Shown here one piece after another: positions 3,984-47,126 of a DNA stretch of 64,000 nucleotides. Position 1 is the first letter of the stretch. Each line of letters begins with the position of its first letter. Origin of the DNA: an uncultured Gammaproteobacteria bacterium (GTDB lineage: Bacteria > Patescibacteriota > Patescibacteriia > S139-126); contig CAZBLW010000001.1 in the NCBI GenBank assembly GCA_964493305.1, positions 177,484 to 241,483 on the forward strand. The letters run 5' to 3'. Made by a program: the position numbers and the translations under genes. The notes beneath the pieces are model-generated. The model had not been told where the DNA came from, made no database searches, and worked only from the letters and a program-made list of their open reading frames with translations.

Positions 3984-4532
3984 CATCTACCCCTATGTTT
4001 CCATAAGGAATGGACTATCTCATCATCCTGATTTAATTCAGGAGCGGGGCGCTTCCCCCTAATAAAGAGGTACGCCTTTCGGCTAGTCTCTGAACCTTCT
4101 CGCCAAATTAGCGAGCTTGGCTGCGGATTACCTTATCTGTAATTTTCAGACTTAGGCTTCCCGTCAATTCACCCCGTTTTTCTGTCCTCGCTTACGCGAG
4201 GCAGCTGCGTAATACCGACATGTAATTCTCTGTGACAATTAGCACAAATCAAAATGCATTTGTCGACTTCTTTTTTTACACTTTCCCATGACCTTGTCAA
4301 ACCTTGTCCGGATATACCAAATTTCTTTTTGGTTTTATCTAGATGGTGTAAATCGAGAGCTTCAATACATTTTTTATAACCACAAATTATACATTTACCG
4401 CCTTTATATTCAACAACCATTGCTTTAATCTGTTTTCTTCTTTTAGCAACAGCTCGTTTTAAATATTGGGCACGATCGGTATATTTTCTTTTATCTGGCA
4501 TACATTTAAAAGTATACCAAATGATGTTGAAC
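3984..4532 (-). mobile_element. group I self-splicing intron in the tRNA-Asn anticodon loop (between nt 35 and 36), carrying an HNH endonuclease ORF in its P1 loop
   Basis: The 5' exon end GGCUGU can pair with the internal guide GCAGCC (revcomp of 4119..4124), including a terminal U.G wobble at the splice site. The R-like element UUCAGAGACUAGCC (revcomp of 4081..4094) and S-like GAGAUAGUCC (revcomp of 4012..4021) form a GACUA/UAGUC P7. The intron ends in G directly before exon 2. Confidence 0.7.
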
Positions 4533-5441: not shown

Positions 5442-6563
5442 ATGAACTGGTATCACAAATTACTTATTACTTTGGTGATTGGATTATTCTTATTCATCCA
5501 TCAAGATGTAATAATCGAAAATTATCGTGATAATTCGCCAGTTCTATCTAGCGAAGAAATCACGAGTCTTAATGAGCAGGTGTTGAGAGTAGCAACTAAT
5601 GCCCAAGAACAAATAAAATCTGACGGGTATTCCGTCGACCAATGGCAAGCGGATGTTTTCTTATTGAGACAAATATTGAATGAATATAAAAGATACTATA
5701 ATTATAGATTTTATATTCATGCTCAAAATACTATTGATTTTACAATCGAAAATTTTTACCGTCCAAAATCAATGGACAAAGTCAATGGTTTATTATTTCA
5801 ACAAGAAGTTAATTCTGCTCAAGCTAATGTCCTGCACGACAATAATGTTGGAGTAGATTGGTCAAAATTTTTGACAGGACTTTGGAGTTTTTATTTATCA
5901 TTTATACCGTTTGTCTTTTTGATCATCTTGATTAAAAGGTCAACTGTATATAAGTTGAAATTCCATTCTGCCGGAGATATGGCAGTTGTCATACTATGTA
6001 TATTGTTTAGCATCATCGGTATCTTTGTTTATAAACCCAATAGTTTATTACAAAAAACGATTGATGCCGAACTACAAGTTTGGCAAGAGAAAATTGGCAC
6101 TAGAGGCTGGAGATTAGCACTAGCCTATATGTTAGCAATCTTATTTGCCATTGGGACGATTCTTCGTCCCATAAAAATTTATGCCCAAGAAATTGTGCAG
6201 AATAGGGTGACAATTACCCAAATGGTAGTAGAATCTGAAGACGAATCTTTAGAATTCAATTTGCCAATTACGGCAACGGTGCGGAACTATTTTGTAAAAA
6301 TCATTAGAGCAATTCAGAAATATATATTTCTGTTTTTTTCTCCCATGTTTATTTTACTAAACATTCCGCCACCCAGAAGTTTCATCATAGTCAATTGGCA
6401 AACGCCAAGAGACAAATTAGTATTATCTAAAATGATAATTGGCTGTAGAGCTCCAAGTATTTTAGTTCAGTTTAACTTAATTAACCGAACTAAAACAAAA
6501 TACAAAGGAATTTACTACAGTGAAAAACATCATTTTAATATTATTAATCTTTTTGGCAGCTAA
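5442..6563 (+). CDS. hypothetical integral membrane protein
   Basis: 373 aa with several hydrophobic helices and an SD AAGGAG upstream. The 3' end overlaps the next ORF by 44 nt, so the stop or frame should be verified. Confidence 0.5.
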   Translation: MNWYHKLLITLVIGLFLFIHQDVIIENYRDNSPVLSSEEITSLNEQVLRVATNAQEQIKSDGYSVDQWQADVFLLRQILNEYKRYYNYRFYIHAQNTIDFTIENFYRPKSMDKVNGLLFQQEVNSAQANVLHDNNVGVDWSKFLTGLWSFYLSFIPFVFLIILIKRSTVYKLKFHSAGDMAVVILCILFSIIGIFVYKPNSLLQKTIDAELQVWQEKIGTRGWRLALAYMLAILFAIGTILRPIKIYAQEIVQNRVTITQMVVESEDESLEFNLPITATVRNYFVKIIRAIQKYIFLFFSPMFILLNIPPPRSFIIVNWQTPRDKLVLSKMIIGCRAPSILVQFNLINRTKTKYKGIYYSEKHHFNIINLFGS

Positions 6564-7332
6564 TGTCCAAATACTTTCTCAGGATTTAACAATTACCCGC
6601 AAGTATGTCGGAGTAATTTATACCGGAGTAATAGATCAAAAAGTAAATATCAACAGCAATGTTGATTATATGTTTGGTTTAGAAACCAAGTATACATTAT
6701 TTACTGATAATGATTTATTTTTTCGAGCACGTTACTCAAATCCTGATGAAAGTTATGGTAGTTTCTGGTACGAATCAAATTTCAATGACTTGAAAGTCAA
6801 AGTAGGCTATATTGCTAGACAAATTACTCTGACTAGACCTCATCCAATTGGATCAGGAGGACACTTTGAACCTTTCCCTTATGGAAAGATACCTGGTGGT
6901 GCTCCTGGCGTTGATGTTTCTTTAAATGGAAACAGTTGGTCAGTCGGAGTCGGTTACTCCTACAATTCTCAAAAACAAGTCAGCGAAGCAAACCTGGGAG
7001 TTGGCTTCAAAGATAAAGATTTTGAGATTAGGGGCGGGTTAGTTTACAACCAGCTGTATCAGGGAGTAGCAGGTCAGGTGATATATTGTGGTTCTAAGCT
7101 GATGAGTTTTATTGAATCAGATTCTCTACTAACAAATTTTTTGTTTATTAGTGGCCCTATCAACGGCTACTTAGGATCAAGTTATGATCATAAACACAAA
7201 GATTTGGAAAGAGTAGAATTTGGTTTAACCAAAGATTTATCAGCACCTTACGGTTTAAAGGGCGTAATTGCCACTGGATATGATCCTTTAAATAAATTGG
7301 TAAAAATTTATTTTTGGGTCTATTTCCAGTAA
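6520..7332 (+). CDS. hypothetical secreted protein (signal peptide, beta-rich)
   Basis: Begins with a GTG start and a hydrophobic N-terminus (ILILLIFLAANVQ). Composition is Gly/Tyr/Ser-rich. Confidence 0.5.
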   Translation: MKNIILILLIFLAANVQILSQDLTITRKYVGVIYTGVIDQKVNINSNVDYMFGLETKYTLFTDNDLFFRARYSNPDESYGSFWYESNFNDLKVKVGYIARQITLTRPHPIGSGGHFEPFPYGKIPGGAPGVDVSLNGNSWSVGVGYSYNSQKQVSEANLGVGFKDKDFEIRGGLVYNQLYQGVAGQVIYCGSKLMSFIESDSLLTNFLFISGPINGYLGSSYDHKHKDLERVEFGLTKDLSAPYGLKGVIATGYDPLNKLVKIYFWVYFQ

Positions 7333-7382
7333 TAATAAACAATTTTTTCCAACTTTCAAAAAAGAAAGGAGGTAAAATTTTA

Positions 7383-7416
7383 GAGTCGTCTTGAAAAGAC
7401 GACTCTTTTATTTTGT
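7383..7416 (+). terminator. rho-independent terminator (agagtcgtcttgaaaagacgactct + T-run)
   Basis: Perfect 10-bp stem followed by TTTTATTTTG. Confidence 0.75.
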
Positions 7417-7448
7417 TGTATAATTAAATATTACTTAAATTAATCAGT

Positions 7449-8639
7449 ATGAAAAAAATTTTTATTGGTTTATTTTTATTTATTACTTGGTTAATTCCAG
7501 CCAATGCTTTAGCCAATACGACAAATATTTATTTTTTTTGGGGACAGGGTTGTCCGCATTGCGCCAAAGAAAAAACTTTTTTGGCAAAATATATTGATGA
7601 AAATCATCAAGTTAAACTTTATGATTATGAAGTTTATTACAATCAAAATAACCAAGAATCATTACAGGCTCTTGGCAAGTCTTTAGGTTTTTCTATTCAA
7701 GGTGTACCAGTAACTATTATTGGTGACCAACCCTTGGTGGGTTTTAGTGAAACTATAACACCTGCTGAAATAGAGCGTCGGATTGATGCTTGTTTGCAAC
7801 TTGGTTGTCCAGATAAAACCAGTGAAATTTTAGGGATAGCTAAAACAGCACCAATTGCTATTTCAAATTCAGACACTTTAGCAGTTGAGTCAGATAAAAT
7901 CAAATTACCCTGGTTGGGTGAAATTGAAACCAAAAATTTTTCTTTGCCAGTACTAACTATTATTTTAGGAGCGCTTGATGGATTTAATCCCTGTGCGATG
8001 TGGGTACTGTTGTTTCTCATAAGTTTGTTACTAGGCATGAAAGATAAAAAACGGATGTGGATTTTGGGTAGTGCATTTATTATTGCCTCAGCTATGGTTT
8101 ATTTTTTGTTTATGGCCGCTTGGCTAAATTTGATAATTTTTTTAGGATTTATTGTTTGGGTTAGAGTATTGATAGGAATTTTGGCTTTGGTAGGTGGTGG
8201 TTACAATTTGAAAGAGTATTTTACCAATCCCACCGGTGCTTGTAAGGTGACCGGTACGGAAAAAAGACAGAAAATTTTCAGTCGGTTACAAGAAATTACT
8301 AAATCTAACAGTTTTTATTTAGCACTGGGTGGTATTGTTTTGTTGGCAGTAGCGGTCAACTTGGTAGAGCTTATTTGTTCAGCGGGACTGCCAACAGTTT
8401 ATACTCAAATTTTAGCCTTAAATAGTTTAACCAGTTGGCAGTATTATTTATATATTTTGCTTTATATTTTTGTGTTTATGCTTGATGATATGTTGGTTTT
8501 TTTTATTGCCATGGCTACTTTACAAGTAACTGGACTGACTACCAAATACTCCCGTTATTCACATTTAATTGGCGGTGTTTTGATGTTAATTATTGGTATA
8601 TTGCTTATCTTTAAGCCTGAAGTATTGATGTTTGGCTAA
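7449..8639 (+). CDS. thioredoxin-like domain (CPHC) fused to a CcdA/DsbD-type transmembrane thiol-disulfide transporter
   Basis: Signal peptide, WGQGCPHCAKE thioredoxin motif, then the TM core with GFNPCAMWVLLF and LVELICSAGLP conserved cysteines. Confidence 0.75.
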   Translation: MKKIFIGLFLFITWLIPANALANTTNIYFFWGQGCPHCAKEKTFLAKYIDENHQVKLYDYEVYYNQNNQESLQALGKSLGFSIQGVPVTIIGDQPLVGFSETITPAEIERRIDACLQLGCPDKTSEILGIAKTAPIAISNSDTLAVESDKIKLPWLGEIETKNFSLPVLTIILGALDGFNPCAMWVLLFLISLLLGMKDKKRMWILGSAFIIASAMVYFLFMAAWLNLIIFLGFIVWVRVLIGILALVGGGYNLKEYFTNPTGACKVTGTEKRQKIFSRLQEITKSNSFYLALGGIVLLAVAVNLVELICSAGLPTVYTQILALNSLTSWQYYLYILLYIFVFMLDDMLVFFIAMATLQVTGLTTKYSRYSHLIGGVLMLIIGILLIFKPEVLMFG

Positions 8640-8709
8640 ATAACTGTTAATTACTTTATTCTGATATTTGATATATAATAATTAGTAGTAATTAATAATT
8701 GTTTTTATT

Positions 8710-9648
8710 ATGACTAGAAATAAAATATTTCTTATTATTTGGTTAATTTTATTGGCTGTTTTGTTGGTAGGGGCGGGAATCTGGGCTTTGCGCTTATGGG
8801 ATCAAAAGCAATTAGATGAAGTAGTACCAATCAATCAAAATAGCAGTCAGCCAATTGTTGGTAATGATGTTGATAGTTATGGCTGCTTAACTTCCGCTGG
8901 TTATGGTTGGTGTGAGGCTAGTCAGAAGTGTTTGCGAATTTTTGAAGAATTTTGTCCAGATATGGCAACTGGTTTAGTCGGGGCAGTTCGGCAGAATACC
9001 GGAATAGTTTTTACTGGACCAGTTCAGAAAAGTTTCAATTGGGTAACGGGTGATGAAACTACTCAGGCTGATGTTGCCATTGATGGTTTATCTTTTCAAG
9101 CAGAAAATTTGACTATGAATGGTGTTACTACTATAGAAAATTTTCTCAATTCTCTGGCTCAGACTGATTCTTTCAATTTAGCTGATGGTGTTGTTGGTGG
9201 ACAGCGAGGGTATTATTTCAACTATATGGCTTGTTTGTATAATTTTCGTAACAATGAACAGGTAACAACTGAAGCAACTACCACTGAAGCAACTACAACC
9301 GAAGTAGTTAACGATACTTACAATGTAGAATTATCTTGTGGTTATTTTAATCCCAACGATATGCCACAAATAATTACTCAACAAAAAATTAGAGAACTAT
9401 TTGCTCAAAAGTATGATCGTAGCACGGATGAAGTAACCATTGCCATAACTACCAGTACAGCAGATCATATGCGGGGTAGCGTCAAGTTTGGTGATGGTAC
9501 CAAAGGCGAAGGTGGAATATTTTTTGCTGCCAAAGTTGATAACGAGTGGAAGTTGGTGTTTGATGGTAACGGCATGATACCTTGTAATTTATTGACTGAA
9601 TATAAATTTCCTGACGATTTTCAGACTGATTGCGCACCACTAGAATAA
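8710..9648 (+). CDS. hypothetical secreted protein with a TTEATTTEATTTE repeat
   Basis: N-terminal TM/signal region, a short Thr/Glu/Ala tandem repeat and several Cys. Confidence 0.5.
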   Translation: MTRNKIFLIIWLILLAVLLVGAGIWALRLWDQKQLDEVVPINQNSSQPIVGNDVDSYGCLTSAGYGWCEASQKCLRIFEEFCPDMATGLVGAVRQNTGIVFTGPVQKSFNWVTGDETTQADVAIDGLSFQAENLTMNGVTTIENFLNSLAQTDSFNLADGVVGGQRGYYFNYMACLYNFRNNEQVTTEATTTEATTTEVVNDTYNVELSCGYFNPNDMPQIITQQKIRELFAQKYDRSTDEVTIAITTSTADHMRGSVKFGDGTKGEGGIFFAAKVDNEWKLVFDGNGMIPCNLLTEYKFPDDFQTDCAPLE

Positions 9649-9655
9649 TTTTTTA

Positions 9656-9681
9656 AAACCTCGCTAGTTAGCGAGGTTTTT
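9656..9681 (+). terminator. rho-independent terminator (aaacctcgctagttagcgaggttttt)
   Basis: Stem cctcgc/gcgagg followed by a T-run. Confidence 0.7.
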
Positions 9682-9736
9682 ATAGTGGCACTTTTCTAAG
9701 TATTTATTTATCTAACCGCCTAGTTGGCGGGTAATT

Positions 9737-9782
9737 TTGACATTTATTCAATAATATTATAATATCCCTATATAGGGGATAT
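9737..9782 (+). promoter_or_regulatory. promoter TTGACA(9737)-17-TAATAT(9760) with an overlapping palindromic operator ATATCCCTATATAGGGGATAT (9762..9782), a CsoR-type site
   Basis: Near-perfect inverted repeat with C3/G4 tracts overlapping the -10, immediately upstream of csoR. Confidence 0.6.
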
Positions 9783-9820
9783 CGAAAAATTATCAATTAT
9801 AAATTATTAATTTTAAAAAT

Positions 9821-10093
9821 ATGGATAGAAGAAGGAAAACGACGGTTAAATCGCGGGCCTTGCATCGGATAAAGATCATTCAAGGCCATTTGCGTTCAAT
9901 TGAAAAAATGCTTGGTAACAACACTTACTGCATAGATATTGTCCACCAATCGCGGGCAGTACAAAAAGCTTTAAAACAACTTGATTTATTGATTATTGAG
10001 GATCATCTAAAACACTGTGTAGTCAATCAAGTACATCAAGGTCAAGAACAAAAAACTACTAAAGAACTTTTAAAATTATATGAATACAAATAA
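9821..10093 (+). CDS. csoR: CsoR/RcnR-family metal-sensing transcriptional repressor (copper-sensing)
   Basis: RIEGHLRSIEKML..YCIDIVHQSRAVQKAL..LLIIEDHLKHCV carries the conserved Cys/His/Cys ligand positions of CsoR (DUF156). Confidence 0.85.
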   Translation: MDRRRKTTVKSRALHRIKIIQGHLRSIEKMLGNNTYCIDIVHQSRAVQKALKQLDLLIIEDHLKHCVVNQVHQGQEQKTTKELLKLYEYK

Positions 10094-11564
10094 AGATAAT
10101 AAAAAGATCTATTATGTGGAGGGTATGCATTGCTCCTCCTGTGAATTGTTGATTGAAAAAAAGTTATTGAAAAAATTTGACGTCAAGGCCGCAGATGCTT
10201 CTTTAAATAAAAATCAAGTAGAAGTTTATTTAGCTGATGAGCAAGCTTTGGATTTAGCAGCAATTAATCAAGAATTTAAAAATTTAGGATATAGCTTTTT
10301 TGAAAAACCCAAAGCAAAAAAAATAAAAAAATTATTTTATCGTGCCAACAATAGATGGCATGTAAATAAAGAAAAACTGGCTTCTTTTTTAAAAATTATT
10401 GTTGGGTCTGCGATTTTTTTGTTGGCTTATTATTTTTTAGATAAATGGCAGTTGGGTAGATTTGTATCCGTTGATACTCGTTCTTCTTTGCCAGCTTTTT
10501 TTGTTTTAGGTTTGGTGGCTGGGATTTCTAGTTGCGCGGCTTTGGTAGGTGGGTTATTGCTCTCGCTGACTAAAAAATGGCATGAAGTGTACATTGATAG
10601 TGAAAATAAAAAAGAAAAATTACTACCACACTGGTTATTTCATTTGGGGAGATTGGTGTCATTTTTTATTTTGGGTGGTTTATTGGGTTTATTGGGTAGC
10701 GGTTTGTCTTTCAATAGTTCCACTAGTTATGCTATTTTAGTTGGTTTAGTTTCGCTATTAATGATTGTTTTGGCTTTACAAATGTTGGAGGTGGGGTGGG
10801 CAAAAAAAATTTCTTTTAGTCTACCAAAATTTTTTACCAGCAAAATTGTCAGTGAAAACAATTGGTCAGGTAAATTTTTTCCATTTATTATTGGTGGGCT
10901 AACTTTTTTTCTTCCTTGCGGATTTACTTTAATTGCCCAAGGTATTGCCTTGACTACTGGTAGTTTTTTTATCGGGGGAATGATTATGTTGTTTTTTGCT
11001 TTGGGAACTTTGCCTATGCTAGCTGGCATTAGTTATTCTGGTTATCGTTTTACTCAAAAACCTCATTTAACGGCGAAGTTCTCTCGGATAGCTGGAATTA
11101 TTGTTATTTTTTTTGCTTTTTATAATATCAATGGACAGTTAAATGTTTTAGGTCTACCCAGTCTACACGATGTTAAAAATTATTCAGCAGCAAAAACTCA
11201 AACTCAATCAGGGCCCACTATTTTATTTGGCCCTGATGCCGGTAAAAGTTTACCAATCAGTAGTGATACTAATCAACAAAAAGAAATTAATGATGTTCAG
11301 AAATTAAATATAATCGCCAAGGATTTTGAATATACCAATTTAGGTAGCACTATTTTAAAAGCCGACATACCCACTGTGATGATAGTAGATAATCAAGGAG
11401 TTTTGGGTTGTGGTGCCCAAATGGCGGCACGGGGTTTGTTTAGTGGTTTTGTCAATTTAAAACCGGGTGAAAATCAAGTTAATTTAGGCAAACCCAAGGC
11501 TGGTAGTTATAAAATTACTTGTTCCATGGGCATGGTGCCACCATTAACAGTAACTTTTCAATAA
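10080..11564 (+). CDS. heavy-metal-associated (MHCSSC) domain fused to a multi-TM permease with conserved TM cysteines (DsbD_2/TauE-like) and a C-terminal Cys/Met-rich soluble domain
   Basis: YYVEGMHCSSCE HMA motif; TM region with ISSCAALVGG and FFLPCGFTL; C-terminal ..GVLGCGAQMAARG..KITCSMGMVPP. The family assignment for the membrane core is tentative. Confidence 0.55.
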   Translation: MNTNKDNKKIYYVEGMHCSSCELLIEKKLLKKFDVKAADASLNKNQVEVYLADEQALDLAAINQEFKNLGYSFFEKPKAKKIKKLFYRANNRWHVNKEKLASFLKIIVGSAIFLLAYYFLDKWQLGRFVSVDTRSSLPAFFVLGLVAGISSCAALVGGLLLSLTKKWHEVYIDSENKKEKLLPHWLFHLGRLVSFFILGGLLGLLGSGLSFNSSTSYAILVGLVSLLMIVLALQMLEVGWAKKISFSLPKFFTSKIVSENNWSGKFFPFIIGGLTFFLPCGFTLIAQGIALTTGSFFIGGMIMLFFALGTLPMLAGISYSGYRFTQKPHLTAKFSRIAGIIVIFFAFYNINGQLNVLGLPSLHDVKNYSAAKTQTQSGPTILFGPDAGKSLPISSDTNQQKEINDVQKLNIIAKDFEYTNLGSTILKADIPTVMIVDNQGVLGCGAQMAARGLFSGFVNLKPGENQVNLGKPKAGSYKITCSMGMVPPLTVTFQ

Positions 11565-11565
11565 T

Positions 11566-11787
11566 ATGGAGACTAAAATACAAATTAAAGGTATGCATTG
11601 TAACGCTTGTTTAGCACTTATTAGGATGGAACTTGAAGAAAAAGGTTGGGGTGACAGGATAAAAGACATTCAACTAGTAGCTGGTCAAGAAAAAGGGTTA
11701 GTTTATTTTTCTCAACTAACTGCGGATGAATTACATCAGGTGGAAAGTACAATAAATAATTTAGATAATTATCAAGTAATAAAATAA
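11566..11787 (+). CDS. copZ: copper chaperone CopZ (HMA domain)
   Basis: [13 protein letters not shown] in a 73-aa ferredoxin-like protein. Confidence 0.8.
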
Positions 11788-11792
11788 ATTAT

Positions 11793-14246
11793 ATGATTAC
11801 TAAAATATATCCTATTGTCGGCATGCATTGTGCGGCGTGTAAAAATTTAATTGAAAAAATGGTTGGTAAATTGGATGGAGTGGAAGGGGTAGAAGTGAAT
11901 TATGCGGCTGAGCAAATGAAAGTAGTTTATGATGAAAATAAGATAACTGTACAAGATTTAATAACGGCAGTTAGTAGCGCCGGTAGTTATCGCTTAATAA
12001 CTACAGATAGCAACCATACTATTTTAGCTGATCCTCATCAGGCCAAAAAGATAACTTCTCAGTACCCTGATCATCATAATCATGTTGCCACCTTGCGTCA
12101 GCAGGAGTATTTACATTTACAAAAAAAAGTTTGGTGGGTGGGTTTAGCTAGTTTGCCTTTTTTGGTGATTATGATTTTTATGGTGGCAGCTGCGTTTAAG
12201 TTTATAGCTATGCCCATGTCGCCCCTGGGCTATTTGACATTCGAGCAATTTAACTATCAGATTGATTTATTTTATTTGCTGCAATTTTTAGTTGCCACAC
12301 CAATTATCTTTTTTGGCGGTAAACAATTTTTTCAAAGTGCTTGGCAAGCAGTTCGAGTAAAATCAGCTAATATGGATACCTTGATTGCCTTAGGAACTTT
12401 TGTTGCTTGGTCGTATTCTACTATGGTAACTTTCTTGCCCAATTTATTTAGTCAGTTGGCGGTTGAGGTTTTTTTTGAGGCAGGCGTATTTATTACTTTT
12501 TTTATTCTGTTAGGGCGTTTATTGGAAGCTCGTGCCAAAGGACAAGCTAGCGATGCGATCAAAGCTTTGTTACAGCTGGGAGCAAAAGCAGCTACAGTAG
12601 TACGTGATGGTAAAGAGATAACCTTGCCAGTCAATGAGGTTTTAGTAGCTGATGTAGTAGTTGTTAGACCAGGAGAGAAGATACCGGTAGACGGTAAAAT
12701 AATATCAGGCAATAGTACTATAGATGAGTCCATGGTTACTGGTGAGTCGATGCCGGTAGAAAAAAATGTAGGTGATTTAGTAATTGGTGCCACCATAAAT
12801 AAAATAGGTAGTTTTAAATTTGTTGCCACAAAAGTCGGTGAAGATACTCTGTTGGCACAAATAATTAAAATGGTTCAAGAAGCTCAAGGTAGTACTCCAC
12901 CTATTCAAAAATTGGCAGACAGAATTTCTGCAGTTTTTGTACCAATAGTTGTAATCATTGCAGTATTTAGTTTTATTTTTTGGTTGTTGATCGCCCCTCG
13001 ACTGGGTTTGGTTGGTGGGGACACATCCACTTTACAACTAGCGTTATATATTGCGATCACCGTGTTAATCATTGCTTGTCCTTGTGCTTTGGGACTAGCA
13101 ACTCCTACGGCTGTAATGGTAGGTTCGGGTAAGGCTGCAAAAAATGGAATTTTGATAAAAGATGCCACAGCATTAGAGTGGTCCAATAAAATTGAAAAGA
13201 TTGTTTTTGATAAAACCGGAACATTGACCAAAGGTGAACCAGCAGTGACTGATTGGCAAATAGCTAACCAGGAAGATAAAGATGAAATTTTACGTTTAGC
13301 CTATGCAGTTGAACATTTATCTGAGCATCCTTTGTCTACTGCTATCACCAATTATGCCAAACAGCATAATTTAGCGAATGATTTAAAAGTAGAAAATTTT
13401 CAAAGTTTAGTTGGTTTGGGCGTAACAGCAGTAGTTTCAGGCAAAAAAATAATATTGGGAAATGAAAAATTATTTATTAACGAACAAATAAATATTGAAA
13501 GTTTTGGTGAAACTGCTACAAGGTGGAAAAATACTGGTCAGACATTGGTTTATATGGGAATTGACAATAGTGTTGTTGCTCTATTTGCTTTGGCTGATGT
13601 AGTTAAAAATGAAGCTCCAGAATCACTCAATAAATTGCGAAGCTTGGGTATTACCACCATTATGTTAACTGGTGACAATGAGATGACTGCTCGCACAATT
13701 GCAAATCAATTGGGGATAGATGATATAATCGCTGAAGTGCTGCCACAAGACAAAGCCGAGATTATCAAGAAATTACAAAAAAATACAAAAGGCAAGATAG
13801 CTATGGTGGGCGATGGCATCAATGACGCACCAGCTCTGGCACAAGCTGATATTGGTATAGCTATGGGCACAGGTACTGATGTGGCAATTGAGACTGGTAG
13901 CATTGTTTTGGTTAAAGGAAGTTTAGATAAAGTAGTAGAAACCATAGAACTATCCCGTTTGACTTTTGGCATCATCAAACAAAATTTATTCTGGGCGTTT
14001 GGTTACAATGTTATTGCAATTCCGGTTGCAGCTGGTATTTTGTATTCTGCTTTTGGTTTATTACTCTCGCCAATTATTGCTTCTGCCGCTATGGCTTTTA
14101 GCTCTATTTCAGTGGTATTAAATAGTTTACGGTTGAAAAAGTTGACTACAAAAAATAAGAATTTATCAAATTTGTTTTTTTATATTTTTATTTTTATTTT
14201 TGTTGCGCTGGTGTTTTATTTTGGTGCAATTTTAGGAAGGATGTAA
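11793..14246 (+). CDS. copA: copper-translocating P1B-type ATPase
   Basis: N-terminal [14 protein letters not shown](ALGLATP) ion site, DKTGTLT phosphorylation motif, [10 protein letters not shown] hinge. Confidence 0.92.
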
Positions 14247-14316
14247 AAATTACCCTTGGAAATAATTGATTTTCAGTATATAATAAGCTAGCATCTAAAA
14301 ATTAATTATTTTATAT

Positions 14317-14694
14317 ATGCGTAAAAGTTTGCTAGTTGTATTTATGTTCCTGATGGTTTTTTTAGTTGGTTGTACCACTAAACCAGTGAGTCAACCAGTG
14401 GAAACAAACTCAGTAAATAATACTAACAATGAAGATATGACAAATAACAATCCAACTTATAAAATGTCAGAAGTAGCTAGTCACAATACAGCCAGTGATT
14501 GTTGGTCAGTAGTTAGAGGACAAGTGTATGATTTGACTGAATGGATTGCTAAACACCCGGGCGGTGAAGCAGCTATCACCCAGTTGTGTGGAGTTGATGG
14601 TACTGATAAGTTTGTGGGAAAGCATGGCGGTAGTAGTTTGCAGGAAAATACTTTGGCAGAATACAAAATAGGCGATCTATCTGCTGAACAATAA
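14317..14694 (+). CDS. lipoprotein with a cytochrome b5-like heme-binding domain
   Basis: Lipobox FLVGC; HNTASDCWSVVRGQVYDLTEWIAKHPGG..CGVDGTDKF..HG matches the cytochrome b5 HPGG signature. Confidence 0.65.
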   Translation: MRKSLLVVFMFLMVFLVGCTTKPVSQPVETNSVNNTNNEDMTNNNPTYKMSEVASHNTASDCWSVVRGQVYDLTEWIAKHPGGEAAITQLCGVDGTDKFVGKHGGSSLQENTLAEYKIGDLSAEQ

Positions 14695-14705
14695 AATAAA
14701 ATTTA

Positions 14706-14732
14706 AAACCCTTTGTCGATACAAAGGGTTTT
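14706..14732. terminator. bidirectional rho-independent terminator (aaaccctttgtcgatacaaagggtttt)
   Basis: Perfect 9-bp stem flanked by A-run and T-run, between convergent genes. Confidence 0.8.
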
Positions 14733-14737
14733 TTGTT

Positions 14738-15067
14738 TTAGAGATAAGTTTTAGCTGCCATGCGTAAAGTGTCATAACTGCCATCATTGAGGCCACGTTG
14801 GTACATTAGGGTAAGCATACGTTCAATCGTTAAAATATCATCTGGATTTTTTATTTTCTGGACAATAATGCCAAAATCAAACAAAACTGTTTTAACGTCT
14901 TCTTGATCAAATTTTTCCGGGTGCATTAAATCTATAAATTCAAATTCAATATTCGGGTGATTTTTTTGAATATATTGTTTTGCTTGTGAAGGCAGTAAAC
15001 TATCAACTAGCATGACACATGGTACCAGGCGGCGGCCCTTTTTAATATTAATTAATACTGGGTACAT
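14738..15067 (-). CDS. hypothetical protein
   Basis: 109 aa with no recognised motif. Confidence 0.45.
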   Translation of the reverse strand: MYPVLINIKKGRRLVPCVMLVDSLLPSQAKQYIQKNHPNIEFEFIDLMHPEKFDQEDVKTVLFDFGIIVQKIKNPDDILTIERMLTLMYQRGLNDGSYDTLRMAAKTYL

Positions 15068-15172
15068 AATGAACCTCCTTATTTTTAAGTTGCATAACTT
15101 ATGCAGATTAAAACCAATGTCTTATTTTGTCAATAAATAGCGATTCTATTGGTAAATATTGGCATTTTAGTA

Positions 15173-15201
15173 TTGACAAAATCCGAAAAATATGCTATCA
15201 T
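15173..15201 (+). promoter_or_regulatory. promoter TTGACA-17-TATCAT, a paralogue of the 5343 promoter module
   Basis: agtattgacaaaatccgaaaaatatgctatcat against agtattgacaaaatcgaaaaaatgtgctatact. Confidence 0.55.
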
Positions 15202-15249
15202 CAATGGTTAGTTCTTAAATAATTTATCACAAATCAATAGGAGATCGTC

Positions 15250-15732
15250 ATGCATATCAGGCCAAAACATATTATCGTATTGATAATAATGCTTTTCACC
15301 AGTACTTTTCTACTTGATTCTTTTAAAATGGTAAAAGAAGCAGATTACGTTTGTTATTATTCATATCAGTATATAGCAGATGGTTTTCCACCTGCAAGTG
15401 AAATTTCTGACATGGATAATCATGCTCGAGTGGCATTATTTTTTTATCTTTTCTTGGCAGCAGCCATTATTATGTTTTACTTTGTAAAAAATAAAACAGT
15501 CGGGCTTTTTCCGGTAGGTATTATAATATTTTCCGCAATCGTTCTTTCCGTGGTCAGAATTTTTACGACCATGAAGGTAGAAACCTTTCACTGGGAAAAT
15601 ATTTTTGCACCTTTGGTCTTAGGTTTAACCTATGGATTAGTAATTTTTCTCTGGAGATATCAATTTCCAGAAATTAGATTTAAAAAATCAAAAATTGCAA
15701 AAGAATACGAAAAAGCCCATGCAAGTGAATAA
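15250..15732 (+). CDS. hypothetical integral membrane protein (4 TM)
   Basis: 160 aa with hydrophobic helices and an SD AGGAGA upstream. Confidence 0.5.
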   Translation: MHIRPKHIIVLIIMLFTSTFLLDSFKMVKEADYVCYYSYQYIADGFPPASEISDMDNHARVALFFYLFLAAAIIMFYFVKNKTVGLFPVGIIIFSAIVLSVVRIFTTMKVETFHWENIFAPLVLGLTYGLVIFLWRYQFPEIRFKKSKIAKEYEKAHASE

Positions 15733-29651: not shown

Positions 29652-29738
29652 GCCGCGGTGGTGGAATTGGTAGACACGCAGGTCTCAAAAACCTGTGGGC
29701 GCAAGCTCATGAGAGTTCGATTCTCTCCCGCGGCACCA
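29652..29738 (+). tRNA. tRNA-Leu(CAA), class II with a long variable arm
   Basis: GCCGCGGTGGTGGAATTGGTAGACACGCAGGTCTCAAAAACCTGT..long arm..GAGTTCGATTCTCTCCCGCGGCACCA. Anticodon loop CUCAAAA. Confidence 0.85.
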
Positions 29739-29847
29739 GTAAATCAGTATAAGGAATAAAGTATAAAGTATTAAGTATAATGGTTTATTGAAAATTATCT
29801 TGAATAATTCAGATAAATAAGATATAATCTTTAAGCGTATTTATCAT

Positions 29848-29923
29848 CGCGGGGTAGAGCAGTTGGCAGCTCGCCAGGCCCATAACCTGGAGGTCGCTGG
29901 TTCGAGTCCAGCCCCCGCTACCA
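29848..29923 (+). tRNA. initiator tRNA-fMet(CAU)
   Basis: CGCGGGGTAGAGCAGTTGGCAGCTCGCCAGGCCCATAACCTGGAGGTCGCTGGTTCGAGTCCAGCCCCCGCTACCA is near-collinear with E. coli tRNA-fMet, including the unpaired C1x72. The anticodon loop reads CCCAUAA, with C at position 33. Confidence 0.8.
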
Positions 29924-29924
29924 A

Positions 29925-30001
29925 GGCAGGGTAGCTCAGTTGGTTAGAGCGAGGGAATCATAACCCCTAGGTCGGCGGTTCAACTCCGCCCCCTGTCACC
30001 A
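29925..30001 (+). tRNA. tRNA with anticodon CAU; elongator Met or lysidine-modified Ile2 not distinguishable by eye
   Basis: GGCAGGGTAGCTCAGTTGGTTAGAGCGAGGGAATCATAACCCCTAGGTCGGCGGTTCAACTCCGCCCCCTGTCACCA. Cloverleaf with loop AUCAUAA. Confidence 0.7.

Positions 30002-47049: not shown

Positions 47050-47126
<77 letters not shown>

Follow-up and report, generated by a model that had tools for sequence, protein, structure and literature searches.

A predicted outward-facing CupA-type domain on a widespread membrane protein of Patescibacteria copper operons

The 64-kb stretch of contig CAZBLW010000001.1 analysed here (the window), which is from an uncultured Patescibacteria-like bacterium, carries what is almost certainly, from its sequence, a copper-inducible efflux operon of the CsoR type, with the genes csoR, a gene for a 494-residue membrane protein, a copZ-like gene and copA in that order. 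The operon, its regulator and its pump are ordinary. The 494-residue protein is a widespread, uncharacterised component, and we identify its C-terminal domain as a homologue, predicted to face outwards, of the pneumococcal Cu(I) chaperone CupA. Usual accounts of copper export in single-membrane bacteria have CopZ feeding CopA and no other component; here there is a third conserved operon component, present in thousands of uncultured bacteria. It joins three modules that are each chemically well understood and have not been studied together, and with it the CupA fold is found far outside the handful of streptococcal species that reviews mention. The outcome is a clear hypothesis, and no established view is overturned.

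The CupA-type domain and membrane core of the 494-residue protein

An earlier note on this DNA had described the C-terminal part of the 494-residue protein as a Cys/Met-rich domain. It proved to be a cupredoxin, specifically of the CupA family, both by Foldseek and by a profile search. The top Foldseek match in the PDB to an AlphaFold2 model of the domain (predicted local distance difference test score, pLDDT, of 89.7) was the Streptococcus pneumoniae Cu(I) chaperone CupA (4F2E; template-modelling score 0.77/0.75), followed by CuA domains, FtrB and the CupA-like domain of pneumococcal CopA (4F2F). The model of the full-length protein superposed on CupA 4F2E with a root-mean-square deviation of 2.1 Å over 101 columns. 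A phmmer search with the domain against 1.84 billion representatives gave 84 clusters, most of them proteins of 430-500 residues with the domain at the C-terminus, and nearly all showed a Cys, then 36-38 positions, then C-x-M-x-M. A profile headed by the window domain and including the distant phmmer members (A4) matched CupA with E = 6.9e-19 and 4F2F, the metal-binding domain of pneumococcal CopA, with E = 7.5e-15, both end to end. In the alignment of A4 with CupA the single Cys and the C-x-M-x-M motif superposed, and 23 of the 28 A4 members matched Pfam Cupredoxin_1 (PF13473).

The ligands of CupA are Cys74 and Cys111 in site 1, and Cys74, Met113 and Met115 in site 2 (PMC5646241). All four align with residues of the window protein, Cys444, Cys481, Met483 and Met485, and the distance from Cys to Cys is 37 positions in both proteins (CupA residue numbers from PMC5646241). 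Judged from these alignments, the C-terminal domain is homologous to CupA and has a Cu(I)-type Cys plus Met-x-Met site. Its likeness to CupA and to the N-terminal domain of pneumococcal CopA (4F2E, 2MRY, 4F2F) comprises the cupredoxin fold, the four ligands, their spacing and a place in a cop operon beside CopA. However, CupA is a small protein with a single N-terminal helix, whose cytoplasmic domain feeds a CopA that carries the same fold, whereas the window domain ends a protein with seven transmembrane (TM) helices, is predicted to lie outside, and is encoded beside a CopA with a classical HMA domain in place of the CupA fold. The 494-residue protein bears a CupA-type site but is not an orthologue of CupA. 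While reviews limit CupA to a few streptococci and to action in the cytoplasm (PMC5646241, PMC7558416), the branch to which the window protein belongs is found in Patescibacteria and Chloroflexi.

Exported stand-alone CupA-like forms were limited to three proteins, P0187, P0210 and P0215. P0210 has a cleavable signal peptide and P0215 an N-terminal anchor, while P0187 (301 residues) is a lipoprotein with a signal ending in LFSGC and two tandem CupA-like domains, each with the pattern Cys ... CWMGM. Most of the short matches that looked like stand-alone CupA-like proteins were fragments of the fusion protein and were set aside. Two proteins, of 1,602 and 2,859 residues, contained six CupA-like matching stretches each.

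In front of the cupredoxin domain, Pfam assigned HMA to residues 11-71 and DsbD_2 to residues 139-348. The best PDB matches of the HMA domain were metal-binding domains of Cu-ATPases and CopZ. DsbD_2 (PF13386) was matched over the full six-helix core (E = 2e-31, 107.7 to 109.9 bits against a cut-off of 24.9, profile positions 1-199 of 199), in line with the DsbD_2-like membrane core described in the earlier note. The model for CcdA and DsbD proper, PF02683, was passed by two of the four orthologues tested (32.7 and 39.3 bits against 27.1) and narrowly missed by the other two; the matches ran nearly end to end and were collinear with the DsbD_2 match. The window protein itself did not match PF02683.

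The sequence motifs that the earlier note had picked out (MHCSSC, SSCAALVGG, FLPCGFTL, GVLGCGAQM and KITCSMGMVPP) were each found in the translation. In an alignment of 114 orthologues the invariant residues included Cys18 and Cys21 of the HMA domain; Cys152 (SSCAAL, core helix 1), Pro279-Cys280 (LPCGFT, core helix 4), Pro183, His184, His188 and Arg191 of the membrane domain; and Gly443-Cys444, Cys481, Met483 and Met485 of the C-terminal domain. An AlphaFold2 model of the whole protein, made from the orthologue alignment (pLDDT 86.3, predicted template-modelling score 0.82), had seven long helices, of which helices 2 and 5 were kinked exactly at Cys152 and Cys280. When this model was compared with the PDB using Foldseek, the two soluble domains were matched and no solved relative of the membrane core was found, and a profile search of the PDB with the 494-residue family matched HMA domains only. 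There was no signal for an internal 3+3 helix repeat in the core using hhalign (probability 0.7%).

Hydropathy likewise indicated seven TM segments, one helix ahead of the six-helix core. Across the 114 sequences, the four predicted cytoplasmic segments had a mean of 18.6 Lys plus Arg residues, compared to about 2 for the four predicted outside segments, and the HMA domain has no signal peptide. From the helix count, the positive-inside bias and the lack of a signal peptide, the HMA domain is predicted to lie inside and the C-terminal domain outside (N-in/C-out). The DsbD core has a matching orientation, its first helix beginning on the periplasmic side. The existence of exported stand-alone CupA-like proteins independently supports an outward C-terminal domain.

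The earlier note had singled out the 494-residue protein as the unusual member of the operon. Rather than being unusual, it has over 5,620 homologues, almost all of them full length. The named ones belong to Patescibacteria lineages (Dojkabacteria/WS6, Buchananbacteria, Nomurabacteria) and are labelled 'sulfite exporter TauE/SafE family protein', and a more distant cluster includes a member from Anaerolineaceae (Chloroflexi). We analysed 86 related loci (two genome records, four look-ups and 80 metagenome contigs); a single-protein scan of genome contigs gave two close loci only, and the wider context came from the metagenome scan. A CopA-type ATPase gene lay within 3.5 kb of the fusion gene on the same strand in 54 of the 86 loci, and near it in 33 of the 40 that had at least 2.6 kb of flank on both sides. 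A CsoR-like gene was directly upstream in 50 of the 86 and a CopZ-like gene directly downstream in 18. The commonest orders were csoR-gene-copA, csoR-gene-copZ-copA and copA-gene-copZ. These synteny counts indicate that in Patescibacteria and some Chloroflexi the fusion is common and conserved and belongs to the core of cop clusters, and is not a peculiarity of the window.

Some loci depart from these orders. In a Nomurabacteria locus (L007) a divergent MerR-family regulator gene (5513-5908, - strand) replaces csoR before a fusion-copA pair, and copZ is absent. A larger cop cluster in Dojkabacteria (L005 5714-13452, AP024679) encodes, in order, a CsoR-like protein, an HMA-DsbD_2-CupA-like protein, CopZ, a 222-residue protein of unknown type, a DUF2085 protein, a three-domain multicopper oxidase, a rhodanese plus cytochrome b5 fusion, and CopA. 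The two loci closest to the window, L003 and L004 (CAZUKA010000001.1 and CAZINS010000002.1), are titled 'uncultured Gammaproteobacteria bacterium', but their gene content and named best matches are Patescibacteria-like, and the label is probably wrong.

A comparable fusion has been linked to CsoR before. COG2836 proteins (HMA + DsbD_2 + DUF2318) were computationally predicted as members of CsoR regulons in human-gut Firmicutes (Hobbs et al. 2016, PMC4938975). They share with the window family the HMA-DsbD_2 fusion and the tie to CsoR sites, sometimes with copA, and are likewise uncharacterised, being annotated as proteins for heavy-metal transport/detoxification. However, their third module is the DUF2318 membrane domain, whereas that of the window protein is a CupA-type cupredoxin, and the link to copA, occasional for COG2836 in PMC4938975, is the rule for the window family.

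The cop operon and its operator

Pfam and NCBIfam together assigned CsoR, HMA plus DsbD_2, CopA and Cyt-b5 at the locus (Table 1), which bears out the copper-homeostasis operon of CsoR type proposed in the earlier note. The coordinates, gene order and tight spacing that it gave also held when the sequence and open reading frames were checked. The csoR gene and the 494-residue gene overlap by 14 nucleotides (nt), 1 nt separates the latter from copZ and 5 nt separate copZ from copA, with 70 nt between copA and the following cytochrome b5 gene. The identity of the operon rests on these family assignments taken together with the CsoR ligands, the CopA signatures, an operator that is unique in the window, recurs in relatives and matches the published type-2 design, and the flanking terminators.

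Table 1. Coordinates of features in the window.
Feature	Position	Strand	Description
396-residue thioredoxin-like membrane protein	7449-8639	+	Signal sequence, thioredoxin/glutaredoxin-like CPHC domain, multi-helix membrane domain
312-residue gene	8710-9648	+	Membrane-anchored, cysteine-containing, TTEATTTEATTTE repeat
Upstream intrinsic-terminator-like hairpin with U-run	9655..9680	+	Directly after stop of 312-residue gene; fold -15.3 kcal/mol, z = -4.1
cop operon promoter, sigma-70-type	9737..9765	+	TTGACA (9737-9742)-17 nt-TAATAT (9760-9765); 10/12 consensus match
CsoR-type operator, putative	9762..9782	+	21-nt C-tract/G-tract pseudo-palindrome ATATCCCTATATAGGGGATAT
csoR	9821..10093	+	90-residue Cu(I)-sensing repressor, CsoR/RcnR family; PF02583
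494-residue gene	10080..11564	+	Three modules: HMA, seven TM helices (one + DsbD_2 core), CupA-like cupredoxin domain
HMA domain, cytoplasmic (predicted)	10098..10301	+	About residues 7-74, GMHCSSC; PF00403 E = 8e-10
Seven TM helices	10368..11147	+	About residues 97-356; one leader helix + six-helix DsbD_2/CcdA-like core
CupA-family cupredoxin domain, extracytoplasmic (predicted)	11286..11561	+	Residues 403-494; Cys444 ... Cys481-Ser-Met483-Gly-Met485
copZ-like gene	11566..11787	+	73-residue metallochaperone with GMHCNAC
copA	11793..14246	+	817-residue P1B-1 Cu(I)-exporting ATPase, one N-terminal HMA domain
b5 promoter-like element	14256..14284	+	TTGGAA-17-TATAAT, no CsoR box
b5 gene	14317..14694	+	125-residue cytochrome b5-type lipoprotein, lipobox LVGC
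Bidirectional intrinsic terminator	14705..14732	.	12-bp stem; -17.9 kcal/mol, z = -5.4; shared with convergent 109-residue gene

CsoR matched PF02583 with E = 2.5e-22 (79.5 bits, cut-off 22.8), and its closest solved relatives were all CsoRs (Geobacillus 4M1P, Mycobacterium tuberculosis 2HH7). Tyr36-Cys37, His62, Cys66 and Glu82 align with Tyr35-Cys36, His61, Cys65 and Glu81 of the M. tuberculosis protein, which are the Cys-His-Cys set of Cu(I) ligands plus the second-shell Tyr and Glu. The copA product scored 616 bits against the copper subfamily model TIGR01511 (cut-off 397), compared to 407 for the Cd/Zn subfamily model, and its translation shows GMHCAAC, CPC, N-x6-YN-x4-P, M-x2-SS-x5-N and DKTGT. 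This score and these signatures identify it, at the level of sequence, as a P1B-1 Cu(I) exporter. The 73-residue CopZ-like protein gave weak matches (NCBIfam CopZ 19.8 bits against a cut-off of 95; Enterococcus hirae CopZ, 1CPZ, E = 0.013) and no Pfam HMA match, despite its GMHCNAC motif; a gene of the same size holds the copZ position in many related loci.

The putative operator ATATCCCTATATAGGGGATAT consists of perfect 7-bp arms, ATATCCC and GGGATAT, flanking TATATAG, and covers the last 4 nt of the -10 hexamer plus the predicted transcription start. The promoter itself ranks second-best among sigma-70-like matches in 7200-15400. ATATCCCTATATAGGGGATAT occurs once in the window even when 3 mismatches are allowed and was absent from 100 shuffles, and the relaxed form TATCCC-N2-9-GGGATA also occurs once, against 0.02 expected. 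No further CsoR box was found elsewhere in the window, including the region upstream of the b5 gene. The CsoR-type palindrome lies over the -10 of TTGACA-17-TAATAT as the earlier note had described, and orthologous loci share this layout at protein identities as low as about 51%. The spacer around these elements has diverged in L003 and L004 (75-77% protein identity), whereas both hexamers and the palindrome have stayed invariant, and in an orthologue at 51% identity (L008) TTGACA-17-TACAAT is followed by ATATCCCCATATAGGGGATAT, which likewise overlaps the -10. This conservation of -35, -10 and palindrome across relatives is the main evidence that the operator is more than a chance match.

More widely, the palindrome is kept upstream of csoR in L003, L004, L006, L008, L009, L010, L012, L014, L017, L019, L022 and L091, and related C/G-tract palindromes precede csoR in further loci. 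The exact relaxed pattern was present in 12 of the 91 loci fetched. Ten of these 12 have a mapped csoR-like gene and the pattern sits just upstream of it; the exception is L061, where the match (7013-7032) is far from the csoR-like gene. A distant subgroup of fusion loci (L030-L088, e.g. L040 7730-11813) has open reading frames of about 500-590 residues and CsoR-like proteins scoring about 30 bits against the window CsoR. The C/G-tract box was not found upstream in this subgroup, whose regulation presumably relies on another operator or effector.

CsoR operators in the literature are G-tract pseudo-palindromes, and the Streptomyces type-2 consensus is the 21-nt ATATACCCCTNAGGGGTATAT (PMC3902906). 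The window site has the same length and design, but its half-sites are TATCCC/GGGATA compared to the published TACCCC/GGGGTA, so that the TAC/GTA dyad (TAC-N9-GTA) is replaced by TAT/ATA. The CsoR-regulated copZA/copA operons of the Gram-positive bacteria Bacillus subtilis, Listeria monocytogenes (csoR-copA-copZ) and Streptomyces lividans are otherwise alike in having a Cys-His-Cys CsoR, a 21-nt G/C-tract promoter operator, a CopZ-like protein and a P1B-1 CopA; the window differs from them by the additional membrane protein gene between csoR and copZ.

The hairpin at 9655-9680 and the terminator at 14705-14732 appear to form the 5′ and 3′ boundaries of the copper unit, the latter being the strong terminator that the earlier note had placed after the b5 gene. 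A second small hairpin (9716-9730) lies between the 312-residue gene and the cop promoter. With terminators 5′ of this promoter, the copper unit would start at its own promoter and be insulated from the genes upstream.

Transfer of copper or of electrons by the 494-residue protein

What might the 494-residue protein do in such an operon? Without copper, CsoR tetramers would occupy the 21-nt operator over the -10 and the transcription start, so that RNA polymerase is blocked. Binding of Cu(I) by Cys37/His62/Cys66 would free CsoR, and csoR, the 494-residue gene, copZ and copA would be transcribed. CopZ would then pass Cu(I) to the HMA domain of CopA, which would export it. The 494-residue protein may add a second, non-ATPase route or a hand-off station beside CopA: its cytoplasmic HMA domain would receive Cu(I), probably from CopZ, and Cu(I) would move by thiolate ligand exchange to the mid-membrane Cys152/Cys280 of the core, and from there to the outward CupA-type site, to Cys444/Cys481 and then Met483/Met485. 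This site would keep Cu(I) outside the membrane before releasing it or handing it over.

We tentatively favour this Cu(I) relay by ligand exchange alongside CopA, with a confidence a little short of even, because a role with metals is known for each module, HMA fusions are a typical trait of metal transporters (P1B ATPases, MerTP, MerA) and the operon supplies CopZ. We infer that copper and not electrons crosses via the cysteine pair, and the outward direction and the energy source are inferred likewise. Taken more broadly, the three invariant sulfur stations (the cytoplasmic CxxC, the intramembrane Cys pair and the outward CupA-type binuclear site) could carry Cu(I), or electrons to hold it, without ATP, and would then represent an unrecognised class of copper-handling membrane machine; we consider this possible, but somewhat less than probable. 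The 'dedicated metal or redox shuttle' of the earlier note is still the right level of claim for the protein.

Several points weigh against a Cu(I) relay. The nearest characterised relatives of the core, CcdA and DsbD (PF02683), move electrons and not metals via the equivalent cysteine pair, and no energy-coupling element was identified for the 494-residue protein. One tethered site sequesters little copper, which would therefore have to be passed to a further acceptor, and the window has no gene for one. The N-in/C-out topology is a prediction. The C-terminal domain alone matched Cupredoxin_1 with E = 0.023, which is under threshold; a narrow profile, limited to close orthologues (A3), had no PDB match even at E = 10, and homology to CupA appeared only with the broader A4 profile, to which distant representatives had been added. 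Finally, a literature search on the fused family found no experimental study of any member, whether of transport or of binding.

The relationship of the core to CcdA and DsbD suggests another function, which we consider rather doubtful but the most credible of the alternatives: a reductant conduit in which the membrane cysteine pair carries reducing equivalents, not copper, to the outward Cys444/Cys481. The external site would be kept as thiolate to bind Cu(I) exported by CopA, or to reduce and trap Cu(II), and the HMA domain would be the electron entry point or a copper-dependent gate. Homology of the core to CcdA/DsbD is seen through DsbD_2 in the window protein and through PF02683 in the orthologues. 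The six-helix core is of that superfamily and has a cysteine in each of helices 1 and 4, both invariant and at helix kinks, and it is followed, as in DsbD with its gamma domain, by a C-terminal extracytoplasmic domain with a cysteine pair. The outer domain, however, is a copper-type cupredoxin and not a thioredoxin fold, the core is preceded by a fused HMA domain and an additional helix, helix 1 has SSC in place of the PC motif, and there is no known redox partner. A conduit would solve the upkeep of thiolates outside the cell. The structural neighbours of the C-terminal domain include CuA domains, for example in the TlpA-CoxB mixed disulfide (4TXV), where the cysteine pair of a cupredoxin is reduced by a thioredoxin-like protein, and the equivalent cysteines of pneumococcal CupA can reduce Cu(II) in vitro, while what re-reduces them is an open question (PMC5646241). 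On the other side, CcdA and DsbD draw electrons straight from thioredoxin, which would make a fused HMA domain superfluous, the operon encodes CopZ, the natural metal partner of such a domain, and the test for an internal repeat in the core gave no signal. Moreover, we know of no HMA domain that acts as a redox relay.

The remaining alternatives are less likely still. If nothing passed through the core, the protein could be a membrane-anchored external copper chaperone or buffer, with the CupA-like domain taking Cu(I) from the CopA exit or the medium, the membrane domain serving as an anchor or CopA docking partner, and the HMA domain being regulatory. Tight synteny with copA, the secreted and lipoprotein CupA-like proteins without a membrane core, and the precedent of pneumococcal CupA, a membrane-anchored chaperone dedicated to CopA (PMC7558416), are consistent with this. 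We nevertheless consider it improbable, as one helix suffices for an anchor and the invariance of Cys152, Pro279-Cys280 and His184/His188/Arg191 in the 114 orthologues is hard to square with a passive one. Even less probable is a copper importer, mer-like or supplying copper enzymes, in which the external domain would capture copper and pass it via the cysteine pair to the HMA domain and CopZ. In its favour, the symmetrical arrangement of the modules leaves the direction unreadable from the sequence, the L005 cluster holds a multicopper oxidase that requires copper, and MerP-MerT carries Hg(II) inward through cysteine pairs. MerT/MerP and MerTP fusions are indeed analogous in handing a soft metal between an HMA domain and membrane cysteines, but their membrane domains are unrelated to that of the window protein, and in Mer the metal travels inward from an HMA domain that lies outside, whereas the window HMA domain is predicted to be inside. 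Import would also counteract the efflux pump with which the gene is predicted to be co-transcribed, under a repressor freed by excess copper, and no cytoplasmic copper-detoxifying enzyme is encoded nearby. The weak NCBIfam similarity of the window HMA domain to MerTP and MerP, and the binding of several soft metals by HMA domains and cysteine pairs, would allow another thiophilic metal, e.g. Ag(I), Hg(II), Cd(II) or Zn(II). This is the least likely of all, given the Cys-His-Cys fingerprint of CsoR, the P1B-1 Cu(I) signatures and TIGR01511 score of CopA, and a Cys plus Met-x-Met site of the Cu(I) type, as in CupA.

If Cu(I) does move through the cysteine pair, as in the relay we favour, this would be a new transport mechanism in the DsbD/LysE superfamily; if electrons move, they would explain how an extracellular Cu(I) thiolate site stays reduced. 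Should the three sulfur stations work as suggested, cell-wall-poor bacteria with small genomes would have a second, CopA-coupled copper defence, and the CupA site would be confined neither to streptococci nor to the cytoplasm.

The cytochrome b5 gene and other features of the window

The earlier note had also reported a cytochrome b5-like lipoprotein right after copA. Its position and family were confirmed (PF00173, E = 3.4e-20, 72.3 bits, cut-off 23.7), but its membership of the operon was not. In an alignment of 12 relatives, His80 of the HPGG motif, Cys62 and Cys91 were invariant and the second axial ligand, His103, was present in 11, which fits an exported, heme-binding, disulfide-stabilised cytochrome b5. 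A bacterial extracytoplasmic example is b558 of Ectothiorhodospira vacuolata, which is alike in its b5 fold, HPGG and second axial histidine, export signal and conserved cysteine pair. Unlike b558, the window protein is a lipoprotein whose gene stands directly behind copA, in one Patescibacteria lineage; in Dojkabacteria a b5 domain is found fused to rhodanese in a cop cluster.

The b5 gene directly follows copA in five loci (the window, L003, L004, L089 and L091), with b5 identity down to about 50%, whereas on a Kaiserbacteria contig it is unlinked to cop genes. The 75-nt b5 leader, including the promoter-like element, is conserved in all five (with TACAAT in L089 and L091), and in L089 copA and this element are separated by a terminator-like hairpin (z = -3.5). 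The conserved element and leader and the L089 hairpin suggest that the b5 gene probably has its own promoter. In the window the spacer between copA and b5 shows no significant fold (z = -1.07), and since no terminator separates the two genes, read-through from copA is possible there as well. Separate control of b5 by CsoR was considered and dropped, as no CsoR box lies in front of it. The gene is thus a lineage-specific neighbour rather than a demonstrated operon member. A reasonable guess is that its product serves, outside the cell, as an electron partner in the redox chemistry of copper. The rhodanese-b5 fusion of L005, beside the multicopper oxidase in the larger cop cluster, is a second, independent link between b5 and copper genes.

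The earlier note had also listed flanking redox genes with the copper operon. For those upstream this was not supported: they lie behind terminator hairpins, two extra genes intervene in relatives, and comparison of homologues and context showed no functional tie between the 396-residue thioredoxin-like protein and the copper unit. Over 7,900 homologues of that protein share 55-65% identity with it, the named ones being from Patescibacteria (candidate-phyla-radiation) groups and called 'thioredoxin family protein'; the protein's multi-helix membrane domain matched no Pfam family. Variants of 520-570 residues bear extra thioredoxin/redoxin domains. It appears to be a widespread, uncharacterised extracytoplasmic thiol-redox protein with a housekeeping role. 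Between its gene and csoR lie the 312-residue gene and the terminators; the 312-residue protein matched no family, and its conservation is limited to L003 and L004, the closest relatives.

In relatives, an ABC1-family kinase gene (about 400 residues) and an amine-oxidase-like flavoprotein gene (508 residues) stand immediately upstream of csoR (L003 2857-5601, L004 2837-5605, L091 1-2292). The counterpart in the window, 9649-9736, lacks both, which indicates an insertion or deletion at the 5′ border of the operon.

Elsewhere in the window, a group I catalytic intron at 3991-4223 (- strand) is a full-length match to Rfam RF00028 (88.6 bits, E = 2.8e-21). No rRNA was found in the window and no tRNA host, even allowing introns, and the flanking open reading frames have no Pfam family. 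Three tRNA genes lie within 350 nt at 29652-29998 (+ strand), and a fourth is at 47050-47123.

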